A stretch of DNA of 64,000 bases from Patescibacteria group bacterium (GTDB lineage Bacteria > Patescibacteriota > Kazan-3B-28 > UBA10110): contig JAZDKW010000010.1 in assembly GCA_043802665.1 (NCBI GenBank), forward strand, positions 4,024-68,023, written 5' to 3'. How positions within the stretch are numbered: the first letter of the stretch is position 1; each line of letters starts with the position of its first letter. The notes below the pieces were generated by a model, which saw only the letters and a list, made by a program, of their open reading frames with translations, did not search any database and was not told where the DNA came from. The position numbers were made by a program, and so were the translations under genes. Of the stretch, positions 3,961-62,938 are shown piece after piece.

Positions 3961-4410
3961 TTATACCCCGATGGCTTCTTTGACTTTGACTTGATCAATA
4001 TTATCCATTGTCAGCCAGGCCGACATCAATCCAAACCCAGATTTATCGATATCAAACGGGGGGATTTTCTCGGGGTTTTCCAAAAAGATTAGCAGACAAT
4101 ATTTTTTGTCCTTAAACAACTCGAAAAACTTAGGCACCGCATCTTTGGATATACCGTCTTCACTGCCATAAGCCTCCAAAATTCTTTTAACTTTTTCCTG
4201 GGTCAAATGGGTAAAAGTAACTACTTTCTTCACCTGGGCTTTGGCTGACACCCAGTCCCCTGCATCTTTAAAATAAATTGTTTCACCAGCCTGGATCTTT
4301 CCCCACGGTGCTCGTTTAGTGGCATACCAGCGCGATTCAATAGTCTTCTCCCCAGACAAAATCTTGGGCAGAAGCTTCCACGACTTCTTCATTATCGCTA
4401 TATGATCCAT
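3961..4410 (-). CDS. ASCH (PUA-like) domain protein.
   Basis: 149 aa with …LSGEKTIESRWY…GETIYFK…, typical of ASCH. Confidence 0.45.
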   Translation of the reverse strand: MDHIAIMKKSWKLLPKILSGEKTIESRWYATKRAPWGKIQAGETIYFKDAGDWVSAKAQVKKVVTFTHLTQEKVKRILEAYGSEDGISKDAVPKFFELFKDKKYCLLIFLENPEKIPPFDIDKSGFGLMSAWLTMDNIDQVKVKEAIGV

Positions 4411-4433
4411 CGCCCCTATTATACTCTGACTGG

Positions 4434-4796
4434 CTAACTTTTTAGATCAATCCCACCAGCCTTTGTGTTGGCGTGTTTCCCCCTGGTTTGATCAACTGGG
4501 AAACGTTTTTCGTATTCTGCCATAACTTCATTAATCGCCTGCTCCGAATCAACTCCACAAAGATGAGCTATTTTTAGGATTAGAAAAACCATATCTCCAA
4601 CGAAATTAGCCACTTCTTCTTTATTTTCCTTTATTAGTCGCTGTTGTTCAGGAGCATCCACCCACTTAATCACATTCCAAAATTCCCCGATTTCCTCATT
4701 CATATTTAACAGCAAGTCCTTAATCTGCGAAGGGTTGCTCCATTCTCGCTCGTCATCAAATTTTTGAATCTTATCTTGAATGTTTTTCATAAGCAT
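4434..4796 (-). CDS. MazG-like nucleotide pyrophosphohydrolase.
   Basis: EEIGEFWNVIKW…EEVANFVGDMVFLILKIAHLCGVD matches the MazG/NTP-PPase helical motif. Confidence 0.55.
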   Translation of the reverse strand: MLMKNIQDKIQKFDDEREWSNPSQIKDLLLNMNEEIGEFWNVIKWVDAPEQQRLIKENKEEVANFVGDMVFLILKIAHLCGVDSEQAINEVMAEYEKRFPVDQTRGKHANTKAGGIDLKS

Positions 4797-4804
4797 GCTT
4801 CTTC

Positions 4805-5422
4805 CTAATTAACAGTTATGGATTCTGCCAGCAACTTTTTGACTGCCTGGGTGGCATCTTCCCAATTGTACGCGCGGATGACTCCGGTTGGGAGCTGGTC
4901 GTTTCTGTTCCAGGGTTTATCTATCAGCACCATTTTAATGTTATGCGCCATTAAGACATCGGCGTGGCGGGCATCATCATCAATAATCACCTCACATCCA
5001 GCTTGCTCACATAATTCACCTTTAGTCAATGCCGGGCTACCATCCATAGAGTAATGATTGGCAAATAATACTCCACGAAAGACACCGGGAAAGTTTTTCT
5101 CCAGATAAGTATGAGTAATGGCTTCGGCAACATGCTGGCGAGCTGTAACAATATATAGCTCGTGTCCGCACGCTAATTCTTGGATAAATTCTTGGGCGCC
5201 TGGTATCAGTGGCAAATTAGCAAACTCGGGGGTCAAGAAAAAATCATGCACATCTCGAACCGCCTGCTCCACTGTAATTTTCATAAAATTTGGCCAGTGA
5301 TAGTCCACCACATCCTCAAAACACCAATTAGTGCCATGCTGTGGGTTGTACCACTTCAAGAATTCCGCGATAAAACTACACAGCACATCATCTAAATCCA
5401 CCGCTATTTTCATATTCTTCAT
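4805..5422 (-). CDS. HAD-superfamily 5'(3')-deoxyribonucleotidase.
   Basis: N-terminal MKIAVDLDDVL (DxDxV HAD motif I); length about 200 aa. Confidence 0.6.
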   Translation of the reverse strand: MKNMKIAVDLDDVLCSFIAEFLKWYNPQHGTNWCFEDVVDYHWPNFMKITVEQAVRDVHDFFLTPEFANLPLIPGAQEFIQELACGHELYIVTARQHVAEAITHTYLEKNFPGVFRGVLFANHYSMDGSPALTKGELCEQAGCEVIIDDDARHADVLMAHNIKMVLIDKPWNRNDQLPTGVIRAYNWEDATQAVKKLLAESITVN

Positions 5423-47350: not shown

Positions 47351-48715
47351 ATGAATAATTTTAAGTCACATTTACTTCTGTCTTTAATGGCAATTTTACT
47401 GCTCAGCTCTGCCAGTTGTAGCCGATCCGGTTCTCCTGATACCGGGGACGGAGGCACCGTTACCTACCCCAAAGAAGAGATCACTTTGGAATACTACCGC
47501 CTTTGGGATGATGACACTGCTTTGGATGAAATTATCAAAGAATACACCCGGGAACACAAAAATGTGCACATCTCGGTCCATAATATTGCTATGCCAGAAG
47601 GAAAAACTATTTATGACTATCAAAGAGACATCATCAAACAAATCGCTGATGGCGAAGGACCGGATATGTTTATGATCCACAACGATTGGCTACCTTATCA
47701 GATCAACCAAATTTCTCCCCTCCCCAGTAGCATTATGACTTTGGATTCTTACAAACAAAAATATCCCGAGGTGGTTGTTGATGATTTTGTGGCTAACAGC
47801 AAGATTTATGCGGTTCCTTATTATATAGATAACCTGATGTTGTTTTATAACACCGATCTGTTTAGCGATGCCCGCGTCCCCCGCGAAAAAACTCCGCCCA
47901 AGACTTGGAGCGATTTAGTAGATATCGTCCCGGCCCTCACTAAATACGACGCCAACCACAATATCGTCCAATCTGCGATTACTTTAGGAACAGACGATCA
48001 GTGGATTCCCCGTTTTGCCGAAATTCTCGCCACATTGATTATGCAATACGGCGGGACAATGACCACCACCGATCATACTAAAGCCACTTTCGATCTACCG
48101 GTTAACGCCGCTACTCCCTACTACCCGGGTGAAAATGCCTTGAAATTCTACACCGATTTTGCCAACCCCAGTTCACCTCTGTACACCTACTCGGATGCTA
48201 CTGACCCCAGCGGAAAAGCAAAGTTTCCCGGAGACATCCAAGCTTTTATGGAGGGCAAATCGGCTATGTTAATTGGTTACTCTTATCAGGTTAACAACAT
48301 CAAAAAATATTCCGGCGGAGCAGTTCACTTTGCTACCGCTAAACTGCCTCAATGGCGCCCAGAAGAACCAGTAGTTGTTGCCAATTATTGGGGCGAAACT
48401 GTGTCCAAAAATTGCAAATATCCCAATGTGGCCTGGGACTTTATCAACTATGTTTCCCTTAAATCCAATGTCCGTTCCTACCTGAACAATACCGGACATG
48501 TGCCTGCCACTAAAGAGCTCACCGAAACTTACCTAAATAAAAGCTATTTGGCTCCCATCGCCAGCCAAATTAAGTTCAGCAAATCCTGGTACCGAAGCAA
48601 TACTGCCGAAGTAGAAAAAATCTTCGCCAATATGGTGAATAATGTTTTGCATCAAGGCATCCCTGCCAAGACGGCGATTGATGTGGCTGTGCAAGAAATC
48701 AATGCTTTAATTTAA
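47351..48715 (+). CDS. ABC transporter substrate-binding lipoprotein (SBP family 1, sugar-type).
   Basis: Lipobox LLSSASCS; size and motif pattern of family-1 substrate-binding proteins. Confidence 0.7.
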   Translation: MNNFKSHLLLSLMAILLLSSASCSRSGSPDTGDGGTVTYPKEEITLEYYRLWDDDTALDEIIKEYTREHKNVHISVHNIAMPEGKTIYDYQRDIIKQIADGEGPDMFMIHNDWLPYQINQISPLPSSIMTLDSYKQKYPEVVVDDFVANSKIYAVPYYIDNLMLFYNTDLFSDARVPREKTPPKTWSDLVDIVPALTKYDANHNIVQSAITLGTDDQWIPRFAEILATLIMQYGGTMTTTDHTKATFDLPVNAATPYYPGENALKFYTDFANPSSPLYTYSDATDPSGKAKFPGDIQAFMEGKSAMLIGYSYQVNNIKKYSGGAVHFATAKLPQWRPEEPVVVANYWGETVSKNCKYPNVAWDFINYVSLKSNVRSYLNNTGHVPATKELTETYLNKSYLAPIASQIKFSKSWYRSNTAEVEKIFANMVNNVLHQGIPAKTAIDVAVQEINALI

Positions 48716-48730
48716 TAACGCGAAAATATT

Positions 48731-49009
48731 ATGACTGGCTCTGGTTGTGGTACTGACCAAATTTGTTTATTGGTAGAAAACATCAAGGCTGGTTTGGTCA
48801 ACACATATCATTACGCTATGCCAATCGTGGCAATTCTCTTAGTGATTATTGTCATCTGGGCGGGTATTCAATACATCACTGGTGGCCCTAAAGGAGCTGA
48901 GACTGCTAAAAAAACTATTATAGCCGCTGTTATTGGAGCCTTGATTATTATTTTGTCCAAAGTAATTTTGGACCAGGTCGTTGGCTTCATCAACCCGCCA
49001 ACACCATAA
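48731..49009 (+). CDS. VirB2/TrbC-like type IV pilin, paralog 1.
   Basis: Two hydrophobic helices; shared motif IQYITGGPKGAETAKKTIIAAVIGALIIILS with the next ORF. Confidence 0.4.
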   Translation: MTGSGCGTDQICLLVENIKAGLVNTYHYAMPIVAILLVIIVIWAGIQYITGGPKGAETAKKTIIAAVIGALIIILSKVILDQVVGFINPPTP

Positions 49010-49110: not shown

Positions 49111-49458
49111 ATGAAAAAGTTTTATCAGCGCGCTATAACTACCGTAGCAGGTTCTATTTATGCCGTGTTTGCCCTAACTCCCTTCGCCCATGCAGACCTA
49201 CAGGTACCAGATGTAAACCAGTATACAGGATCCTTGGATATATTAGGAATCATTGGAAACGTGGGTACTTGGATGATGGGACTGGCAGGTGTTTTGGCTG
49301 TAGTGTATCTCATCTATGGAGGTATTGTTTATATCACCGGCGGTGCCAAGGCGGCAGAAAGTGCCAAAACTATCATTATTAACTCTATTATCGGGTTGGT
49401 GGTGATTGCATTGTCTTATGTTATATTCACGACTGTATTCGAAGTGCTTGAAATTTAG
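49111..49458 (+). CDS. VirB2/TrbC-like type IV pilin, paralog 2 (with signal peptide).
   Basis: IVYITGGAKAAESAKTIIINSIIGLVVIALS; cleavable N-terminus. Confidence 0.45.
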   Translation: MKKFYQRAITTVAGSIYAVFALTPFAHADLQVPDVNQYTGSLDILGIIGNVGTWMMGLAGVLAVVYLIYGGIVYITGGAKAAESAKTIIINSIIGLVVIALSYVIFTTVFEVLEI

Positions 49459-49478
49459 AATCAATTCGCAATTTAATA

Positions 49479-49505
49479 ATAAAAAACCTCCCAAGGGAGG
49501 TTTTT
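49479..49505. terminator. Bidirectional intrinsic terminator.
   Basis: AAAAAACCTCCCaaGGGAGGTTTTTT. Confidence 0.6.
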
Positions 49506-49543
49506 TATTACCCCCTTCCCAGGGTTCAAATCCTTATATGGTA

Positions 49544-49582
49544 AAGAGAAATAGCAACTTCAAAATGAAGTTGCTATTTCTC
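49544..49582. terminator. 18-bp perfect hairpin immediately 3' of tRNA-Arg.
   Basis: AGAGAAATAGCAACTTCAaaaTGAAGTTGCTATTTCTCT. Confidence 0.5.
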
Positions 49583-49658
49583 TGGCGCGCCCGAGAGGAT
49601 TTGAACCCCTGACCTTTCGGTCCGTAGCCGAACGCTCTATCCCCTGAGCTACGGGCGC
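49583..49658 (-). tRNA. tRNA-Arg (anticodon ACG).
   Basis: Manual fold: GCGCCCG/CGGGCGC acceptor, D-arm GCTC…GAGC, anticodon stem TTCGG/CCGAA with loop CTACGGA, T-arm AGGGGTTCAAATCCTCT, GCCA. Confidence 0.82.
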
Positions 49659-51225: not shown

Positions 51226-51900
51226 TTATTTTAGGTTATTACTATGTTTGCCTGCGAGATGTCTTAATGATGATTTGGTCAGGGCAAACCCATAGATATC
51301 CTGGAAATTATAGGCAAATTGACGCGCGGTGGTATGGGAATCGACAGTCCGGATTAATTGCAATAATTTATTCTGGGGATACTTATCCAATAAATACTTC
51401 ACCCAATAATAACCTACTCCGTAGACTTTTTGCCCACCTACATTAAAGAAACCATTTAAGGATATTAGATCTCCCTCGGCCGGAATTGTTTTATTCTGCC
51501 CAGCCAAATAACAAGCTAACCCCTCATTTAACCATCTTGGTTTTCCAGTATTACTATCCGTAATAATATGGTAATACAGATGAACATATTCATGGACCAA
51601 GACTTGCCAAAATTGGCCGGCCGTATGATCGGATTCTTTGGCAAATACTTTAGGATCAAGGATATAAATTGTTTCTGATTTAGTCCAAGCACACAGCCAG
51701 CTCTCGGTTTTTTTGCCCCAAAATTTGTCGATCTCTCGTCGAGATTGGAGTAACACCACTGGCGGTAATTCTAGTTTGATACCAAAAAATTTATTCAGCT
51801 TTTTTTGAGCTAACTTAAGCGCAGAAATCACCTTGGGATCTCGAGTAGAAGTTGATTTGAAATTAGAGATGCTCATACCATAAGAATACCAGAAAAGCAC
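51226..51900 (-). CDS. Small gluzincin-type zinc metallopeptidase (M1-like HEXXH-X18-E).
   Basis: QVLVHEYVHLYYHIITDSNTGKPRWLNEGLACY: HExxH, exactly 18 residues, then a WLNEGxAxY-like third ligand. Confidence 0.5.
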   Translation of the reverse strand: MLFWYSYGMSISNFKSTSTRDPKVISALKLAQKKLNKFFGIKLELPPVVLLQSRREIDKFWGKKTESWLCAWTKSETIYILDPKVFAKESDHTAGQFWQVLVHEYVHLYYHIITDSNTGKPRWLNEGLACYLAGQNKTIPAEGDLISLNGFFNVGGQKVYGVGYYWVKYLLDKYPQNKLLQLIRTVDSHTTARQFAYNFQDIYGFALTKSSLRHLAGKHSNNLK

Positions 51901-51959
51901 TCTTGACCCGAGAGATTACAGACTAAACAAGCTTAATGATTTAATAAATTCATCAAGAG

Positions 51960-52487
51960 TTATTTTGAATAAACCATCTGGAGAGTTTCGGGCTGGCAAG
52001 GATTCTTGGGGTATTTTTTAATACCTCGGGGTTGAAATCCGACTTTTCCATAAGCCTTAACGGCACGAATGTTTTCTGGCCTTACTTCTAAATATATTCT
52101 ATGGATATCCAACCCTTTAGCCTTAGCCAGCAATAGCTTGATCGCTTTAACCCCATATCCCTTGCCCCAATATTTCTTATTGCCAATTACTATCTGGGTC
52201 TCGTAATTATCATCCTTTCTTTTCCCTAAGGAAATATGACCAATGGTTTGTTTGTTTAAATCGACCATGAAATGATGATCTGTTTTACTGCCCAGCATAT
52301 CGTGAAAATATTCTTCTACTTCCGCATCGTAAATCGGCTTAAAATCTCCGCTGGTGAGTGTAATTAGATCTTTATCTCTCCACCACTTCCGGAAATATCC
52401 GATATCTCCAGATCTGATCTTTCTTAAAGTTATCTTGTTCATAAGGTAATTATAACAACTTGTCCAATAACAATATTTTTCCAACAC
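51960..52487 (-). CDS. GNAT-family N-acetyltransferase (RimJ/RimL-like). GTG start at 52487; alternative ATG at 52442.
   Basis: …QIVIGNKKYWGKGYGVKAIKLLLAKA… acetyl-CoA-binding motif Q/RxxGxG/A. Confidence 0.75.
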   Translation of the reverse strand: MLEKYCYWTSCYNYLMNKITLRKIRSGDIGYFRKWWRDKDLITLTSGDFKPIYDAEVEEYFHDMLGSKTDHHFMVDLNKQTIGHISLGKRKDDNYETQIVIGNKKYWGKGYGVKAIKLLLAKAKGLDIHRIYLEVRPENIRAVKAYGKVGFQPRGIKKYPKNPCQPETLQMVYSK

Positions 52488-52556
52488 TACGGCGGCTACA
52501 GATACCCTGAATGACAGACATCTCCATGCGAAGTTTTTTGTATAAGAAAAGAGAAA

Positions 52557-52582
52557 AGCCGCCTCATTATAAGGCGGCTACA
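52557..52582 (-). terminator. Intrinsic terminator immediately after the precursor-peptide gene.
   Basis: Minus strand: AGCCGCCttataatgAGGCGGCTTTTCTCTTTTCTT. Confidence 0.6.
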
Positions 52583-52598
52583 CCGCGGTCTACCACAC

Positions 52599-52769
52599 TT
52601 AGCCGACACATCGGCAACTGGGACCGCCGGAATCGCAATCGCATGGATCACAATTGCAGTCGCAATTGTCACATGTGATACCGCGTTCCGTTAACTGTGG
52701 GGTGTTAATTGTGGATACAGCTGCCATGTCAATGATGGTTTCGAAGCCACAACCTGACAGATTATCCAT
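52599..52769 (-). CDS. Cys/Asp-rich precursor peptide (56 aa from ATG 52769; the ORF track extends to GTG 52790). The sequence is MDNLSGCGFETIIDMAAVSTINTPQLTERGITCDNCDCNCDPCDCDSGGPSCRCVG.
   Basis: GGGGA ribosome-binding site 7 nt upstream; starts 15 nt after the stop of the radical-SAM gene; nine Cys; terminator follows. Confidence 0.6.
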   Translation of the reverse strand: MDNLSGCGFETIIDMAAVSTINTPQLTERGITCDNCDCNCDPCDCDSGGPSCRCVG

Positions 52770-52783
52770 AGTATCATCCCCTT

Positions 52784-54115
52784 TCAGCACGATATTAATA
52801 TCCTCTGTTGATAGAGTGCTGATACAAACTTGGGTAGCAATAGCTCTGTGAGCTTATTCAAGCTACATGGAAACTCAAAAGTATTTATACGATCAGCGAA
52901 TAAGAATCTGGTTGCCTCCTCATTTAAGAAAGCGGCACACTGATTACCAATATAAACTATAGAGCCAAAATTCTCTTTACGCCAACGCAAATCTGGGTTA
53001 AGCGCTAGATTATTCGGCAACATAACAGAATCGTCTTGGAATTGCTTCAATTTATAGAAACTCTCCAAAGCATCTTGTGCATCAGATGGACTCACAAGAG
53101 AATCCTCGGCACCAAACTCCCCATTGATAACCTCGGCTTCCGCTCGACACCCTCCCCCACAAATCAAGAGCGCTTTGCACTTTTTACAAATCGGGGGTAT
53201 TAATGAACCGTCTCTCCACTCGTACATTCTTTGCCAAATAGCACACAGCGATTCATTGAAGATATTGCCATGACTAATGCTGACATGAGTGCAGACTCTT
53301 ACTTGTCCTAGCGCGGATACAGCTACAGCAGTGATGCCAGCCGAACATCTCTTTCCAGCTACCATGTGGTAACGGAAAACATCTTTGATAGCACATAGAG
53401 GATACACGGTCAAGACCCCTGTTCTTAGATTATATTCTTTCTCCAATTGGACTAGATCTTCCAAATAACTGCGTAATTCCATTAAATCTAACGAATATTC
53501 CCTAAATCCGGCACAACCTGACGGACATGTTGCTCTCGTGACATTAAAATTACTTATCCCGAGACTACGAACTAATTGTGCGGTTTCTCTAATGTAGTGC
53601 TGATTCAGGTGAGATACGACCATATTAACAGAAACATTCACTTGATTCTCTTTCAATAATCGTATGCCTTTGATCGTCTCTTGAAATGATCCGGATCTCT
53701 GTGCTATGTCATCATGAATCTTCTCATTCTGCCCCATGATCGACACTAAAACACTAGTGAGATGTTTATACCGACTTAATGCCTTAGCATCATCATTATC
53801 AAGGTTAATTAATGTAGAATTGACACTCGCTACGGCCAATGTGCTCTTTTCTATCCGATCCAGAGCACAGTACAGAGATTCTTTGTTCATCAGGGGCTCT
53901 CCTCCAGTCAGTACTACATAGAACACCTGAGACCTCTCTAATTCATCCAAAACATGCTCTGTTTGATTCAGAGACATTTGGGCACATTTCTCGGAGAGGT
54001 CAGAAGTCTTAACATCCTTTCTGCGCCAATAGTTATAGCAATGTATGCAATTATTTGGACACAGACTAGATATCTCCAACTGAACAGTTAGCGGAGATGA
54101 TAGGGTTTTGTACAT
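52784..54115 (-). CDS. Radical SAM enzyme with a C-terminal SPASM/twitch auxiliary Fe-S domain. Probable start is MYKTLSSP at 54115 with an AAGGAGG ribosome-binding site; the ORF track extends to 54175.
   Basis: CPNNCIHC (Cx3Cx2C) 18 aa from the N-terminus; C-terminal CKKCKALLICGGGC (Cx2Cx5Cx3C); a further roughly 120-aa C-terminal domain. Confidence 0.85.
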   Translation of the reverse strand: MYKTLSSPLTVQLEISSLCPNNCIHCYNYWRRKDVKTSDLSEKCAQMSLNQTEHVLDELERSQVFYVVLTGGEPLMNKESLYCALDRIEKSTLAVASVNSTLINLDNDDAKALSRYKHLTSVLVSIMGQNEKIHDDIAQRSGSFQETIKGIRLLKENQVNVSVNMVVSHLNQHYIRETAQLVRSLGISNFNVTRATCPSGCAGFREYSLDLMELRSYLEDLVQLEKEYNLRTGVLTVYPLCAIKDVFRYHMVAGKRCSAGITAVAVSALGQVRVCTHVSISHGNIFNESLCAIWQRMYEWRDGSLIPPICKKCKALLICGGGCRAEAEVINGEFGAEDSLVSPSDAQDALESFYKLKQFQDDSVMLPNNLALNPDLRWRKENFGSIVYIGNQCAAFLNEEATRFLFADRINTFEFPCSLNKLTELLLPKFVSALYQQRILISC

Positions 54116-54382
54116 AGTTAACCCCTCCTTATTGTTCGATTTATCAAAGGGCTTTATTATAATACCAGAAAGCAAAAACTATGTCCAGATAACACTTTTT
54201 GCCGAAAATTATTATAAAAATTAATAAAGGGGGGCAACTTAGACAGGTTTCTGCGATCTTTACACCATCCTGACTGTTCAGGCAAGCAGGATATCATTTT
54301 TAAACATTATCCTGAGTTATTAAAGAATATTAATGCCGGACAGGTCGCTCTAATAAACTACGCAGGGCGGTCTTCGCTTTTA

Positions 54383-54613
54383 TTAAAAATGTTTCTTCAA
54401 AAATGCCCGACCAGAACCTGACTTAAAATACTTTTCTAATTCAAAAGCTTTATATTTGTCTTGAAGCGCTATATAAAAACAAAGTTTTACTGGTAAACGG
54501 TCTTTGGTTGCTGAAACATAGCCTTTTCGATGTCTATTGACTCTATCTTTCAAGTCATCAGTGCAACCTATATAATAACCTTCTCGACATTTCAGCGAAT
54601 AAATATAATACAT
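54383..54613 (-). CDS. Small GIY-YIG nuclease (UPF0213-like), copy 1.
   Basis: MYYIYSLKCREGYYIGCTDDLKDRVNRHRKG. Confidence 0.7.
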   Translation of the reverse strand: MYYIYSLKCREGYYIGCTDDLKDRVNRHRKGYVSATKDRLPVKLCFYIALQDKYKAFELEKYFKSGSGRAFLKKHF

Positions 54614-54644: not shown

Positions 54645-54718
54645 TCTGGCGAACTTCGTCACGCCGTAGGCCCTGACTTCGTCCAGCCGAAAGCGGACTT
54701 CGTCACGCCGTAGCCGAG
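54645..54718. repeat. Three tandem units of about 22 bp, (G)ACTTCGTC(A/C)(C/A)GCCG(T/A)A…, just 3' of tRNA-Ser(TGA).
   Basis: GAACTTCGTCACGCCGTAGGCC / TGACTTCGTCCAGCCGAAAGC / GGACTTCGTCACGCCGTAGCCG. Confidence 0.55.
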
Positions 54719-54845: not shown

Positions 54846-54938
54846 TGGCGGTGAGGGAGGGATTCGAACCCTCGCGGGGAATTGCTTCCCCCTACCGGTT
54901 TAGCAAACCAGCCCCTTCAGCCTCTTGGGTACCTCACC
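54846..54938 (-). tRNA. tRNA-Ser (anticodon GCT).
   Basis: GGTGAGG-TA-CCC-AAGAGGCTGAA-GGG-G-CTGGT-TTGCTAA-ACCGG-[variable hairpin]-GAGGGTTCGAATCCCTC-CCTCACC-GCCA. Confidence 0.85.
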
Positions 54939-54958: not shown

Positions 54959-55198
54959 TTATTTTAATCTACGATGCAAATCTTTGTGCCCATCGCTGGA
55001 CTTCAAGAACCTTTCTCTTCTCTGAGCTATCAGTTTATCTTGGTAGGCTTCATAGCAAACCAACACAAACGGGATTCTATATTTAGTAGATGTTACTTTG
55101 CCGGCTTGATGCTCAGCAAATCTTGATTTTAAATTATCGGTTGAGCCAATGTAATATTTACCATCTTTGTTACTTTTTAGCACATAGACATAATGCAT
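54959..55198 (-). CDS. Small GIY-YIG nuclease (UPF0213-like), copy 2.
   Basis: MHYVYVLKSNKDGKYYIGSTDNLKSRFAEHQAGK. Confidence 0.7.
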   Translation of the reverse strand: MHYVYVLKSNKDGKYYIGSTDNLKSRFAEHQAGKVTSTKYRIPFVLVCYEAYQDKLIAQRRERFLKSSDGHKDLHRRLK

Positions 55199-55239: not shown

Positions 55240-55392
55240 GCCCCGCCTGCCCCGCGTATGCTGGGGCGAATGCCGGGGCGAACCCTCGCGGGGAATTGCT
55301 TCCCCCTACCGGTTTAGCAAACCAGCCCCTTCACGTCCTGCGTATGCGGGACAGCCTCTTGCCCCACATGCACGGGGTGCAGGTACCTCACC
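55240..55392 (-). pseudogene. Degenerate copy of tRNA-Ser(GCT): a 53-nt identical core with two roughly 20-nt GC hairpins inserted in the D-arm and the 3' T-loop/acceptor replaced by a third hairpin.
   Basis: 55281..55333 matches 54865..54917 exactly; insertions CGTCCTGCGTATGCGGGACA and CCCCACATGCACGGGGTGCA; the 3' end is replaced by …CCCCGCGTATGCTGGGG…. Confidence 0.45.
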
Positions 55393-62389: not shown

Positions 62390-62938
62390 ATGGCGGAAAA
62401 GATACCTCAAAATATTGAACGGGAAGATAAGCTGGTTGGACCGCTTACTTTAAAGCAATTCCTATATCTATTAGGGGCGGCTGGTTTGATCTTCGCTACC
62501 TATCAATATTATTTAGCAGGTTATCTGTTCGCCCATGAATTTTTCATTATCAGCTTTATCGTAGGAGGGTTGGCTCTCGCCTTGGCCTTTTTAAAAATTA
62601 ATGGCCTGCCGTTTATCTCCTTTTTTGGCAACCTGATTGCTTTTATGTTCACCCGCAAAATGCGGGTCTGGGGCAAAGACAACACGATGGAGAGAACCCA
62701 TCTAACCTCTAAAAAAGATAGCGCCTTAACCCCTGCCACTCCTTCGGCTAAACCAACTTCGCGCAGTGAGTTAGAAAAATTAGCCACGATCTTAGATACT
62801 GGTGGTAAAATAAAGACAGAAAAAGGTTTCTTTGATACTCACATCATTAATACTATTCCTCAAACCAGCACCTCTACCCCCGAGATTGTGGAAGAAGATT
62901 TAGGAGTTGAGGATATTTTCGAGGATACCGATATTTAA
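62390..62938 (+). CDS. VirB3/PrgI-like small two-TM protein.
   Basis: Two adjacent TM helices near the N-terminus; located immediately before the VirB4-like gene. Confidence 0.35.
   Translation: MAEKIPQNIEREDKLVGPLTLKQFLYLLGAAGLIFATYQYYLAGYLFAHEFFIISFIVGGLALALAFLKINGLPFISFFGNLIAFMFTRKMRVWGKDNTMERTHLTSKKDSALTPATPSAKPTSRSELEKLATILDTGGKIKTEKGFFDTHIINTIPQTSTSTPEIVEEDLGVEDIFEDTDI

Follow-up and report, generated by a model that had tools for sequence, protein, structure and literature searches.

One locus on a contig of a Patescibacteria group bacterium (JAZDKW010000010.1, assembly GCA_043802665.1) encodes a radical S-adenosylmethionine (SAM)/SPASM peptide maturase together with a short Cys-rich peptide, and is very probably a radical-SAM system for a ribosomally produced peptide with post-translational modification (RiPP). 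It lies in a window of 64,000 nucleotides, the whole stretch of DNA that was analysed, and all coordinates given here are positions in that window. Five features share its minus strand: the maturase gene (54115..52784), the open reading frame (ORF) of the precursor peptide (52769..52599), an intrinsic terminator (52579..52557), a gene for a GNAT N-acetyltransferase (52442..51960 from its ATG, with the ORF reaching to 52487) and a gene for a gluzincin-type zinc peptidase (51900..51226). An earlier sequence-only reading of this DNA had described the same co-directional series of radical-SAM/SPASM protein, Cys/Asp-rich ORF, terminator, GNAT gene and HEXXH-X18-E peptidase, and every member of it is present. 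Two of its measurements change. The maturase (443 amino acids; Pfam PF04055, PF13353 and PF13186) had been taken to begin at 54175, which is in the same frame and corresponds to an upstream TTG; the most plausible start is the ATG at 54115 (MYKTLSSPL), 6 nt past a AAGGAGGGG ribosome-binding site. The precursor ORF begins 14 nt, not 15 nt, past the TGA stop of the maturase gene, and AAGGGGA precedes its ATG. Upstream of the maturase gene, at 54159..54187 on the minus strand, a consensus scan finds a sigma-70-like site (TGGACA-17-TATTAT with a TG extension) with 10 of 12 consensus matches. It is a promoter candidate only, because such sites in the region are not above shuffled expectation.

The precursor is a peptide of 56 amino acids (MDNLSGCGFETIIDMAAVSTINTPQLTERGITCDNCDCNCDPCDCDSGGPSCRCVG) with the C-terminal end ITCDNCDCNCDPCDCDSGGPSCRCVG. 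It combines a leader motif, G8-F-E-T-I-I-D14 (GFETIID), with a core from C33 to G56 that holds eight Cys, six Asp and two Asn. Precursors were sought by six-frame scan in 88 related loci that were fetched for comparison. In about 65 of the 88, a short ORF with a Cys-rich acidic tail lies on the same strand, at most about 350 nt past the enzyme gene, and about 10 further loci have such an ORF just upstream of the enzyme or somewhat farther downstream. Taken together, at least 75 of the roughly 88 loci carry a precursor-like ORF with leader motif and hypervariable Cys/Asp core. Loss of the peptide from relatives that keep the enzyme, the outcome that the sequence-only reading regarded as fatal to its proposal, is not what these loci show; the peptide is conserved beside the enzyme.

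The leader motif common to these peptides is G-[FY]-x-[ST]-[LI]-[LIV]-[DE], with forms such as GFETILD, FESLLD, GYVSLL and GFVSL, and it stands 15-30 residues ahead of the first core Cys. An alignment of the window precursor with 39 others from related loci shows an invariant C40 and conservation of at least 90% at C36, C38 and C43; the cores are hypervariable, with a mean column identity of 18%. Across 65 precursors, Cys makes up 32% of the core, Asp 18%, Asn and Gly 8% each, and Glu 6%. Cys is followed by Asp in 42% of cases and by Asn, Tyr or Glu in roughly another 30%; the spacing between Cys is mostly 2 or 3, and six is their median number. Cores nearest to that of the window are of the ACDPCDCN...CRCN type and occur in loci L001, L003, L006, L086 and L087. 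The closest relatives of the enzyme have the cores ACDPCDCNHCDPGECRCN (L001), ACDPCDCNEGDCNCNCN (L003), ACDPCNCDASDCNCRCN (L006), ACDPCDCNCNHGCDKSCRCN (L087), PCDPCDCNCNHGCDNCDCRCN (L086) and SCDCDPCDCDASDCTCNCNG (L088), and those of other clades include CDCYDCDYNCEECD, CYCNCGCAC(H/Y)VTG, CDN(A/S)SGGCD..GC..CQSGCEGG..GCDG and CDCNCDCWCDYD(K/R)GN. The window peptide and nine related precursors have no match of note in NCBIfam, its SCIFF peptide model included, at E-values up to 1, and a word-based protein search with the 56-residue window peptide gives no matches. A profile of 40 precursors retrieves five unnamed short proteins only, labelled 'hypothetical protein' in the database.

The terminator behind the precursor consists of a stem of 10 bp with six GC pairs, followed by TTTTCTCTTTT, and the folding energy of its hairpin is about -21 kcal/mol. 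With a threshold of -8 kcal/mol, a hairpin with a T-run at most 90 nt past the precursor stop is found in 46 of 49 related loci and in 7 of 49 random windows taken from the same loci; with a threshold of -15 kcal/mol the counts are 37 of 49 and 1 of 49. A terminator directly after the precursor gene, as noticed in the window from the start, therefore makes the unit of enzyme gene, precursor gene and terminator a trait of the family. Because the order of enzyme, peptide and terminator recurs in dozens of distant genomes, the layout is well beyond chance.

The maturase and its recognition element

The maturase contains the radical-SAM motif C19-PNN-C23-IH-C26 and, near its C-terminus, the SPASM motif C310-KK-C313-KALLI-C319-GGG-C323 (C310-x2-C313-x5-C319-x3-C323). 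Its match to the Pfam model Radical_SAM (PF04055; 70.2 bits against a gathering score of 29.5) places it in the radical SAM superfamily, and SPASM (PF13186; 24.7 bits, cutoff 21.5) and Fer4_12 (34.3 bits) are matched as well. In an alignment of 27 homologues the elements C257-x12-G270-x4-C275 and CX2CX5CX3C, which place the enzyme in the SPASM subfamily, are invariant; so are all seven SPASM Cys (C241, C257, C275, C310, C313, C319 and C323) and D338, and the radical-SAM cysteines C19, C23 and C26 are at least 90% conserved. The SPASM model TIGR04085, a check proposed with the sequence-only reading, is matched by 23 of the 27 family members. The usual last SPASM Cys is absent, and D338 stands about there, 15 residues past C323. 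A conserved Asp is an auxiliary-cluster ligand in PqqE, at a motif position other than that of D338 (PMC5715301), and in PapB and Tte1186 the auxiliary cluster is bound directly by a Cys of the substrate (PMC10177961). The second auxiliary cluster of the maturase may be completed by D338 or by a substrate thiolate.

An AlphaFold (AF2) model of the maturase has a predicted local distance difference test (pLDDT) score of 90.5. The solved structures nearest to it in Foldseek are SuiB, SkfB, anSME, CteB, TigE and ChlB, and a sequence-profile search of the PDB ranks SkfB first (1e-28), followed by PqqE (3e-23), TigE (8vpo), SuiB and then anSME and CteB. The nearest solved relatives are thus mostly RiPP maturases (SkfB, PqqE, TigE, SuiB, CteB and ChlB), with anSME ranking high too.

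Family membership was judged by the curated cutoffs of NCBIfam hidden Markov models (HMMs), of which the 25 best of 73 enzyme matches were listed. The highest score is to AhbD (TIGR04545; 100.6 bits, cutoff 500), in a match that spans residues 12-193, the generic radical-SAM core only. Scores then descend through NirJ2 (TIGR04055; 88.1 bits, cutoff 500), MftC (TIGR03962; 75.5 bits, cutoff 265), PqqE (TIGR02109; 70.7 bits, cutoff 381), the PapB family (NF047865; 66.6 bits, cutoff 340, with a best E-value among the 27 family members of 1.7e-21), AlbA (NF012164; 66.3 bits, cutoff 850), StsB (NF045574; 58.5 bits, cutoff 625), anSME (TIGR03942; 53.5 bits, cutoff 349) and SkfB (TIGR04403; 49.7 bits, cutoff 300). 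No SCIFF maturase model is among these 25 best matches. Over 26 relatives of the maturase the best E-values reach 2.9e-43 (NirJ2) at most and are of a similarly generic magnitude. Since the maturase scores far under every listed curated cutoff, it belongs to the radical-SAM/SPASM group and to no named family. By these cutoffs it is not assigned to anSME or to the pyrroloquinoline quinone (PQQ) or mycofactocin enzymes, an assignment that would have spoken against a peptide maturase: the cutoffs for anSME, PqqE and MftC are all unreached.

The last 75 or so residues of the maturase (about 369-443; 52784..53009, minus strand) are predicted by the AlphaFold model to form four strands and then three helices. 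In the model this winged-helix fold is that of a RiPP recognition element, which was detected by fold comparison of the isolated domain. At the sequence level there is no Pfam PqqD match, and a PDB profile search gives non-significant winged-helix matches only. A profile of the domain finds 193 clusters among 1.84 billion representative proteins, in which it sits at the C-terminal end of proteins of about 420-460 amino acids, or of shorter ones that are perhaps gene fragments. One exception is a 462-residue relative, P0202, whose recognition domain is N-terminal (residues 5-85). In the thioether-forming SPASM enzymes CteB and PapB the recognition element is N-terminal. Among radical-SAM RiPP enzymes, the proteusin epimerases offer a precedent for an element at the C-terminus (PMC8326336).

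A short precursor with a conserved leader and a variable core, beside an enzyme that carries or partners a recognition element, is what characterizes RiPP systems in general, and this combination is found here. The RiPP interpretation of the sequence-only reading is borne out on both counts, by the recognition element of the enzyme and by the conservation of the peptide ORF beside it throughout the family.

Partner peptidases and the proposed modification

Clustering of all ORFs of at least 90 amino acids within 3.5 kb of the enzyme gene yields two recurrent families, F1 and F2, both peptidases with an HExxH...E motif. One or the other adjoins the enzyme in 70 of 85 loci. F1 proteins (about 220-310 amino acids; 49 loci) have no Pfam match and no NCBIfam name, and their genes are divergent and upstream in the nearest relatives of the window but lie downstream in other loci. 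The window gene at 51226-51900 belongs to F2, the Peptidase_MA_2 family, which occurs in 24 loci. HExxH and the downstream Glu are kept in 51 of 53 F1 and 26 of 27 F2 proteins. The window protein, with HEYVH-X18-E, retains every catalytic residue, and its match to Peptidase_MA_2 (PF13485; 44.3 bits, cutoff 32.4) makes it a gluzincin. It had been called M1-like, which holds for the spacing of the motif and not for the family, as Peptidase_M1 (PF01433) is matched at 16.6 bits, below the cutoff of 27.7.

The two families avoid one another: F1 occurs by itself in 46 loci and F2 by itself in 21, the two occur together in three, and 15 have neither (odds ratio 0.05, Fisher p = 2e-7, a value uncorrected for relatedness among loci that include a few duplicates). 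This distribution fits F1 and F2 being interchangeable peptidases with one job, most simply leader removal. Homology between them is not claimed, because hhalign links the two only around HExxH...E, with a probability of 49%. The F2 gene lies directly past the precursor in about 20 other loci. In L030 (6025-6310) and L033 (6031-6355) it overlaps the end of the enzyme gene, and the sole Cys-rich ORF found there is a Pro/Cys repeat (PPPPCVGKPPPPCVG...) past the peptidase, which may be a different kind of substrate. Locus L088 (2907-8109 of a 206-kb contig) has two complete systems in tandem, the first of F1 type with the core SCDCDPCDCDASDCTCNCNG, the second with its own enzyme, a peptide ending ...GGCNCVNCRSCDNKCNK and an F2 peptidase.

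The F2 subfamily also exists outside the system, of which it is a frequent, non-exclusive partner. Most F2 relatives in metagenomes (L089-L168) have no radical-SAM gene within 3.5 kb. That scan used a narrower F2 alignment, the first being too diverse for metagenomes; of the 49 loci whose sequence extends 1.9 kb or more upstream of the peptidase gene, 8 have the enzyme. F2 as a family of dedicated leader peptidases was considered and rejected, as it usually occurs without the enzyme. The suggestion that the window peptidase is the leader protease is accordingly supported in part, through the F1 or F2 gene beside most of the enzymes, but the window-type peptidase is not exclusive to the system. 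We slightly favour the window F2 protein as the leader peptidase of this locus.

The enzyme and peptide of the window belong to an F1-type clade, and a decayed F1 gene is recognizable there. A stretch at 54228..54416 on the plus strand encodes about 60 residues of the F1 N-terminus, exactly at the divergent site that F1 occupies in L001, where the gene is intact (4038-4931), and in L004. It was detected with the F1 HMM (E-value 7.6e-4 over window ORFs) and by tblastn in a 2-kb search space (8.7e-7 with the L004 F1 as query, 1.8e-6 with that of L001). A GIY-YIG gene (54383-54613) overlaps the stretch with its 3' end. The remnant suggests that in the window one partner peptidase, F1, has been replaced by another, F2.

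The GNAT protein is a RimJ/RimL-like member of Acetyltransf_3 (Pfam, 67 bits) and scores under the RimI equivalog cutoff. Only 4 of 86 loci have a GNAT gene within 3.5 kb of the enzyme, and its position varies. A role for GNAT as tailoring enzyme of the family, which had been put forward from the window alone, is rejected on this count, and the window GNAT is most likely a bystander.

The following account brings these elements together, and we give it as a whole a probability of about 0.6. The maturase gene and the gene for the 56-residue precursor would form a two-gene operon ended by the intrinsic terminator. The C-terminal recognition element of the maturase would dock the leader motif GFETIID (a G[FY]x[ST][LI][LI] segment). 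The radical-SAM cluster would then cleave SAM, and the resulting 5'-deoxyadenosyl radical would take hydrogen from acceptors in the core, most likely Asp or Asn, over several rounds. Sulfurs of core Cys, possibly presented on an auxiliary Fe-S cluster, would join carbons of neighbouring Asp, Asn, Glu (or Tyr) in several intramolecular thioethers. Lastly, a cytoplasmic HExxH...E zinc peptidase would cut off the leader, a task that in the window would fall to the Peptidase_MA_2 gene at 51226-51900 standing in for the decayed F1.

For the thioethers taken by themselves, the chance is close to even. They are proposed because the cores combine Cys with acceptor residues, because known SPASM enzymes make Cys-Asp, Cys-Asn and Cys-Glu links, and because the maturase has the seven-Cys SPASM set. 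The precedents are Cys-Asp in freyrasin and QhpD, Cys-Asn in NxxcA and Cys-Glu in QhpD (PMC8326336).

Several observations weigh against this account. The thioether chemistry is drawn by analogy, and the enzyme appears distant from every characterised thioether synthase. The HMMs that the maturase matches best are those of heme-pathway SPASM enzymes (AhbD and NirJ2), in generic matches, and it remains far below the cutoffs of the PapB, AlbA, SkfB and StsB families. The cores of some clades are nearly without Asp (CYCNCGCACHVTG), which excludes Cys-Asp links as a modification common to all. Exporter and immunity genes are missing from the vicinity: transporter families are unmatched by ORFs of at least 150 amino acids between 39.5 and 63.6 kb, a range over which the earlier remark that no ABC exporter is adjacent also holds. 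Of 80 metagenome loci selected for similarity to F2, only about 12 have the enzyme nearby, and the window peptidase sits behind both the terminator and an unrelated GNAT gene.

The same RiPP system could have another chemistry or purpose. Its product might be a metal-binding or redox peptide, intracellular or at the cell surface, and the modification something other than Cys thioethers, for instance epimerisation, C-C or C-O cross-linking, or conversion of Cys by oxidation to a formylglycine-like residue. The missing exporter and immunity genes would suit such a product, as would the retention of the family in many reduced genomes, like that of SCIFF in Clostridia, where conservation has been taken by a review as counting against an antibiotic role (PMC8326336). 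Cores rich in Cys and in Asp, Glu or His with CxC and CxxC spacing resemble metal ligand sets, clades with cores such as CYCNCGCAC lack acidic acceptors, and anSME and SuiB are structurally as near to the maturase as the thioether enzymes are. To our knowledge, however, every radical-SAM/SPASM enzyme that has been characterised on multi-Cys cores makes thioethers. That record of thioether formation (PMC8326336) makes a different chemistry unlikely, as does the hypervariability of the cores (mean column identity 18%), which is unlike cofactor precursors with their fixed reacting residues.

It is less probable still that the GNAT and peptidase genes are both bystanders and that the unit consists of enzyme and peptide, F1 having decayed and the leader being either left in place or cut by a peptidase whose gene lies elsewhere. 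The terminator that separates the operon from the two genes would be expected under this explanation, and so would the inconstancy of GNAT, the many F2-type peptidases without the enzyme and the F1 remnant at 54228-54416. However, F2 lies directly past the precursor in some 20 other loci and is anticorrelated with F1, which fits functional substitution, and the window F2 gene keeps all its catalytic residues.

That the maturase is instead a cofactor or heme-pathway enzyme (AhbD/NirJ-, PqqE- or MftC-like) or a sulfatase maturase, with the small ORF incidental, is extremely improbable: its best NCBIfam matches are indeed to AhbD (100.6 bits) and NirJ2 (88 bits; also best family-wide, at 2.9e-43), but the scores are 3- to 13-fold under the curated cutoffs, the AhbD match covers the radical-SAM core only, the maturase has the predicted RiPP recognition fold, peptide ORF, leader motif and terminator are conserved beside the enzyme in most loci, and genes for tetrapyrrole, PQQ or mycofactocin synthesis are absent from the recurrent neighbours.

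Distribution and genomic surroundings

A search of 5.8 billion proteins finds more than 1,000 relatives of the maturase, the best only 47-49% identical. Where a host is named, it is nearly always a member of the Patescibacteria (Paceibacterota, Niyogibacteria, Yanofskybacteria, Colwellbacteria and WWE3 among them). The family is present in at least 267 species-level genomes, so the locus is not the rarity in a Patescibacteria-like genome that it had been held to be. In two loci (L074 and L059) the contig that carries the system is binned as Nanoarchaeota or 'archaeon' (DPANN), and the cores include DNCDCDCNCDCDATCDFYD; this suggests either horizontal transfer among ultra-small symbionts or mis-binning. 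The system of L074 is flanked by genes for an integrase, an IS66 transposase, Bro-N and ORF6N proteins and a GNAT.

Patescibacteria have tiny genomes and are usually reported with few or no biosynthetic gene clusters (BGCs). One survey found no BGCs in its Patescibacteria genomes (PMC11613949) and another only a handful (PMC12153355). Source annotations of the maturase relatives read 'radical SAM protein', 'PqqE' or 'heme synthase' only, and neither Pfam nor NCBIfam covers the maturase as a specific family, the precursors, or F1, the commoner partner peptidase. A literature search, with subscription-only genome-mining papers outside its scope, found no description of the family.

The system is a compact three-gene arrangement for peptide modification, with hypervariable cores, that recurs in hosts reported to be poor in BGCs. 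Its study may uncover new topologies of radical-SAM cross-links on CDxCDC motifs and leader recognition by a C-terminal docking domain, as well as a molecule relevant to the dealings of episymbionts with hosts, competitors or metals. Two small genes and a mass-spectrometry read-out make it a tractable target. In lacking an exporter and in being widely kept by reduced genomes the system is reminiscent of SCIFF, and a role in metal binding or signalling is conceivable. A more speculative extension, which we regard as less likely than not, would be an undescribed RiPP class typical of ultra-small episymbionts (Patescibacteria and a few DPANN-binned contigs). Its alternating Cys-Asp/Asn would carry a dense cage of cross-links, in a topology or chemistry unlike that of sactipeptides and ranthipeptides, and the product, perhaps metal-binding, would act in the relationship of symbiont and host and not as a classical exported bacteriocin.

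The wider surroundings of the locus hold a solute-binding protein gene (47351-48715), and further ORFs between 39.5 and 63.6 kb encode type IV secretion pilins, PrgI, a SpoIID-domain protein, a class I (Trp/Tyr-type) tRNA synthetase and an O-antigen ligase-like protein. The pilin genes (PF18895) are at 48731-49009 and 49111-49458 and the PrgI-family gene at 62390-62938; genes of both kinds are associated with Patescibacteria. Between the second pilin gene and a tRNA-Arg gene are two perfect palindromes (49477-49510 and 49545-49583). Upstream of the maturase, the GIY-YIG gene at 54383-54613 stands beside tRNA-Ser(tga), with a 21-nt direct repeat of 95% identity (54649-54669 and 54693-54713, 44 nt apart) between the two. 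Another GIY-YIG gene (54959-55198) is bracketed by an exact 55-nt direct repeat (54865-54919 and 55279-55333, 414 nt apart), the first copy of which falls within tRNA-Ser(gct) (54846-54938); this gene and its repeats look like a small mobile cassette inserted at a tRNA. A test for a genomic island gave no clear anomaly, with a GC content of 0.38-0.48 across 49-56 kb and of about 0.43-0.45 in the flanks.

Comparison with known systems

The ranthipeptides, namely freyrasin (PapA/PapB) and the SCIFF peptides (CteA/CteB and Tte1186a/Tte1186), resemble the present system in having a SPASM maturase with a recognition element beside a short precursor with a multi-Cys core. In freyrasin the core bears six Cys-to-Asp thioethers at C-beta (PMC8326336). 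SCIFF systems are likewise phylum-wide and usually without an exporter, and CteB is a structural neighbour of the maturase. The differences are several. The maturase scores 66.6 bits against the PapB cutoff of 340, and the window peptide matches neither the SCIFF model nor any other in NCBIfam. The recognition element is C-terminal here, where CteB and PapB have it at the N-terminus; Cys and Asp stand side by side or alternate (CDxCDC) and do not form CxxxD repeats; an HExxH peptidase accompanies the enzyme; and the hosts are Patescibacteria. Judged by sequence, only the residue composition, with Asp, Asn and Glu next to Cys, is compatible with the ranthipeptide class, whose products are defined by thioethers that link a Cys sulfur to a carbon other than alpha.

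Sactipeptide synthases (AlbA, SkfB and ThnB) are SPASM/twitch radical-SAM enzymes that join a Cys sulfur to a carbon of another residue, and SkfB is the best PDB sequence-profile match of the maturase (1e-28). The AlbA and SkfB cutoffs are not reached by the maturase, however, its cores are far more acidic and denser in Cys, and the domain order differs.

QhpD/QhpC and NxxcB/NxxcA are alike in their side-chain Cys-Asp, Cys-Glu and Cys-Asn thioethers (PMC8326336), which involve the same residue pairs that are enriched in the cores here. QhpC, in contrast, is an enzyme subunit and not a peptide of leader plus core, and NxxcA has a single NxxC link. QhpD and NxxcB are set apart by description, as NCBIfam models for either are absent among the matches listed.

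In PqqE, which acts with PqqD, an Asp replaces the third Cys of CX2CX5CX3C, whereas this motif is intact in the window maturase, which scores 70.7 bits against the PqqE cutoff of 381. PqqA has a fixed Glu/Tyr pair, unlike the hypervariable cores of this family. Proteusin substrates have long nitrile-hydratase-like leaders that are very different from the precursors described here. The radical-SAM epimerases that act on them share the C-terminal recognition element and differ in carrying only the radical-SAM cluster (PMC8326336). The system is of a known kind, the radical-SAM/SPASM RiPPs with Cys-rich cores, and is a new form of it, distinguished by the hosts in which it occurs, by a recognition element at the C-terminus, by cores of the CDxCDC type and by its paired peptidases.

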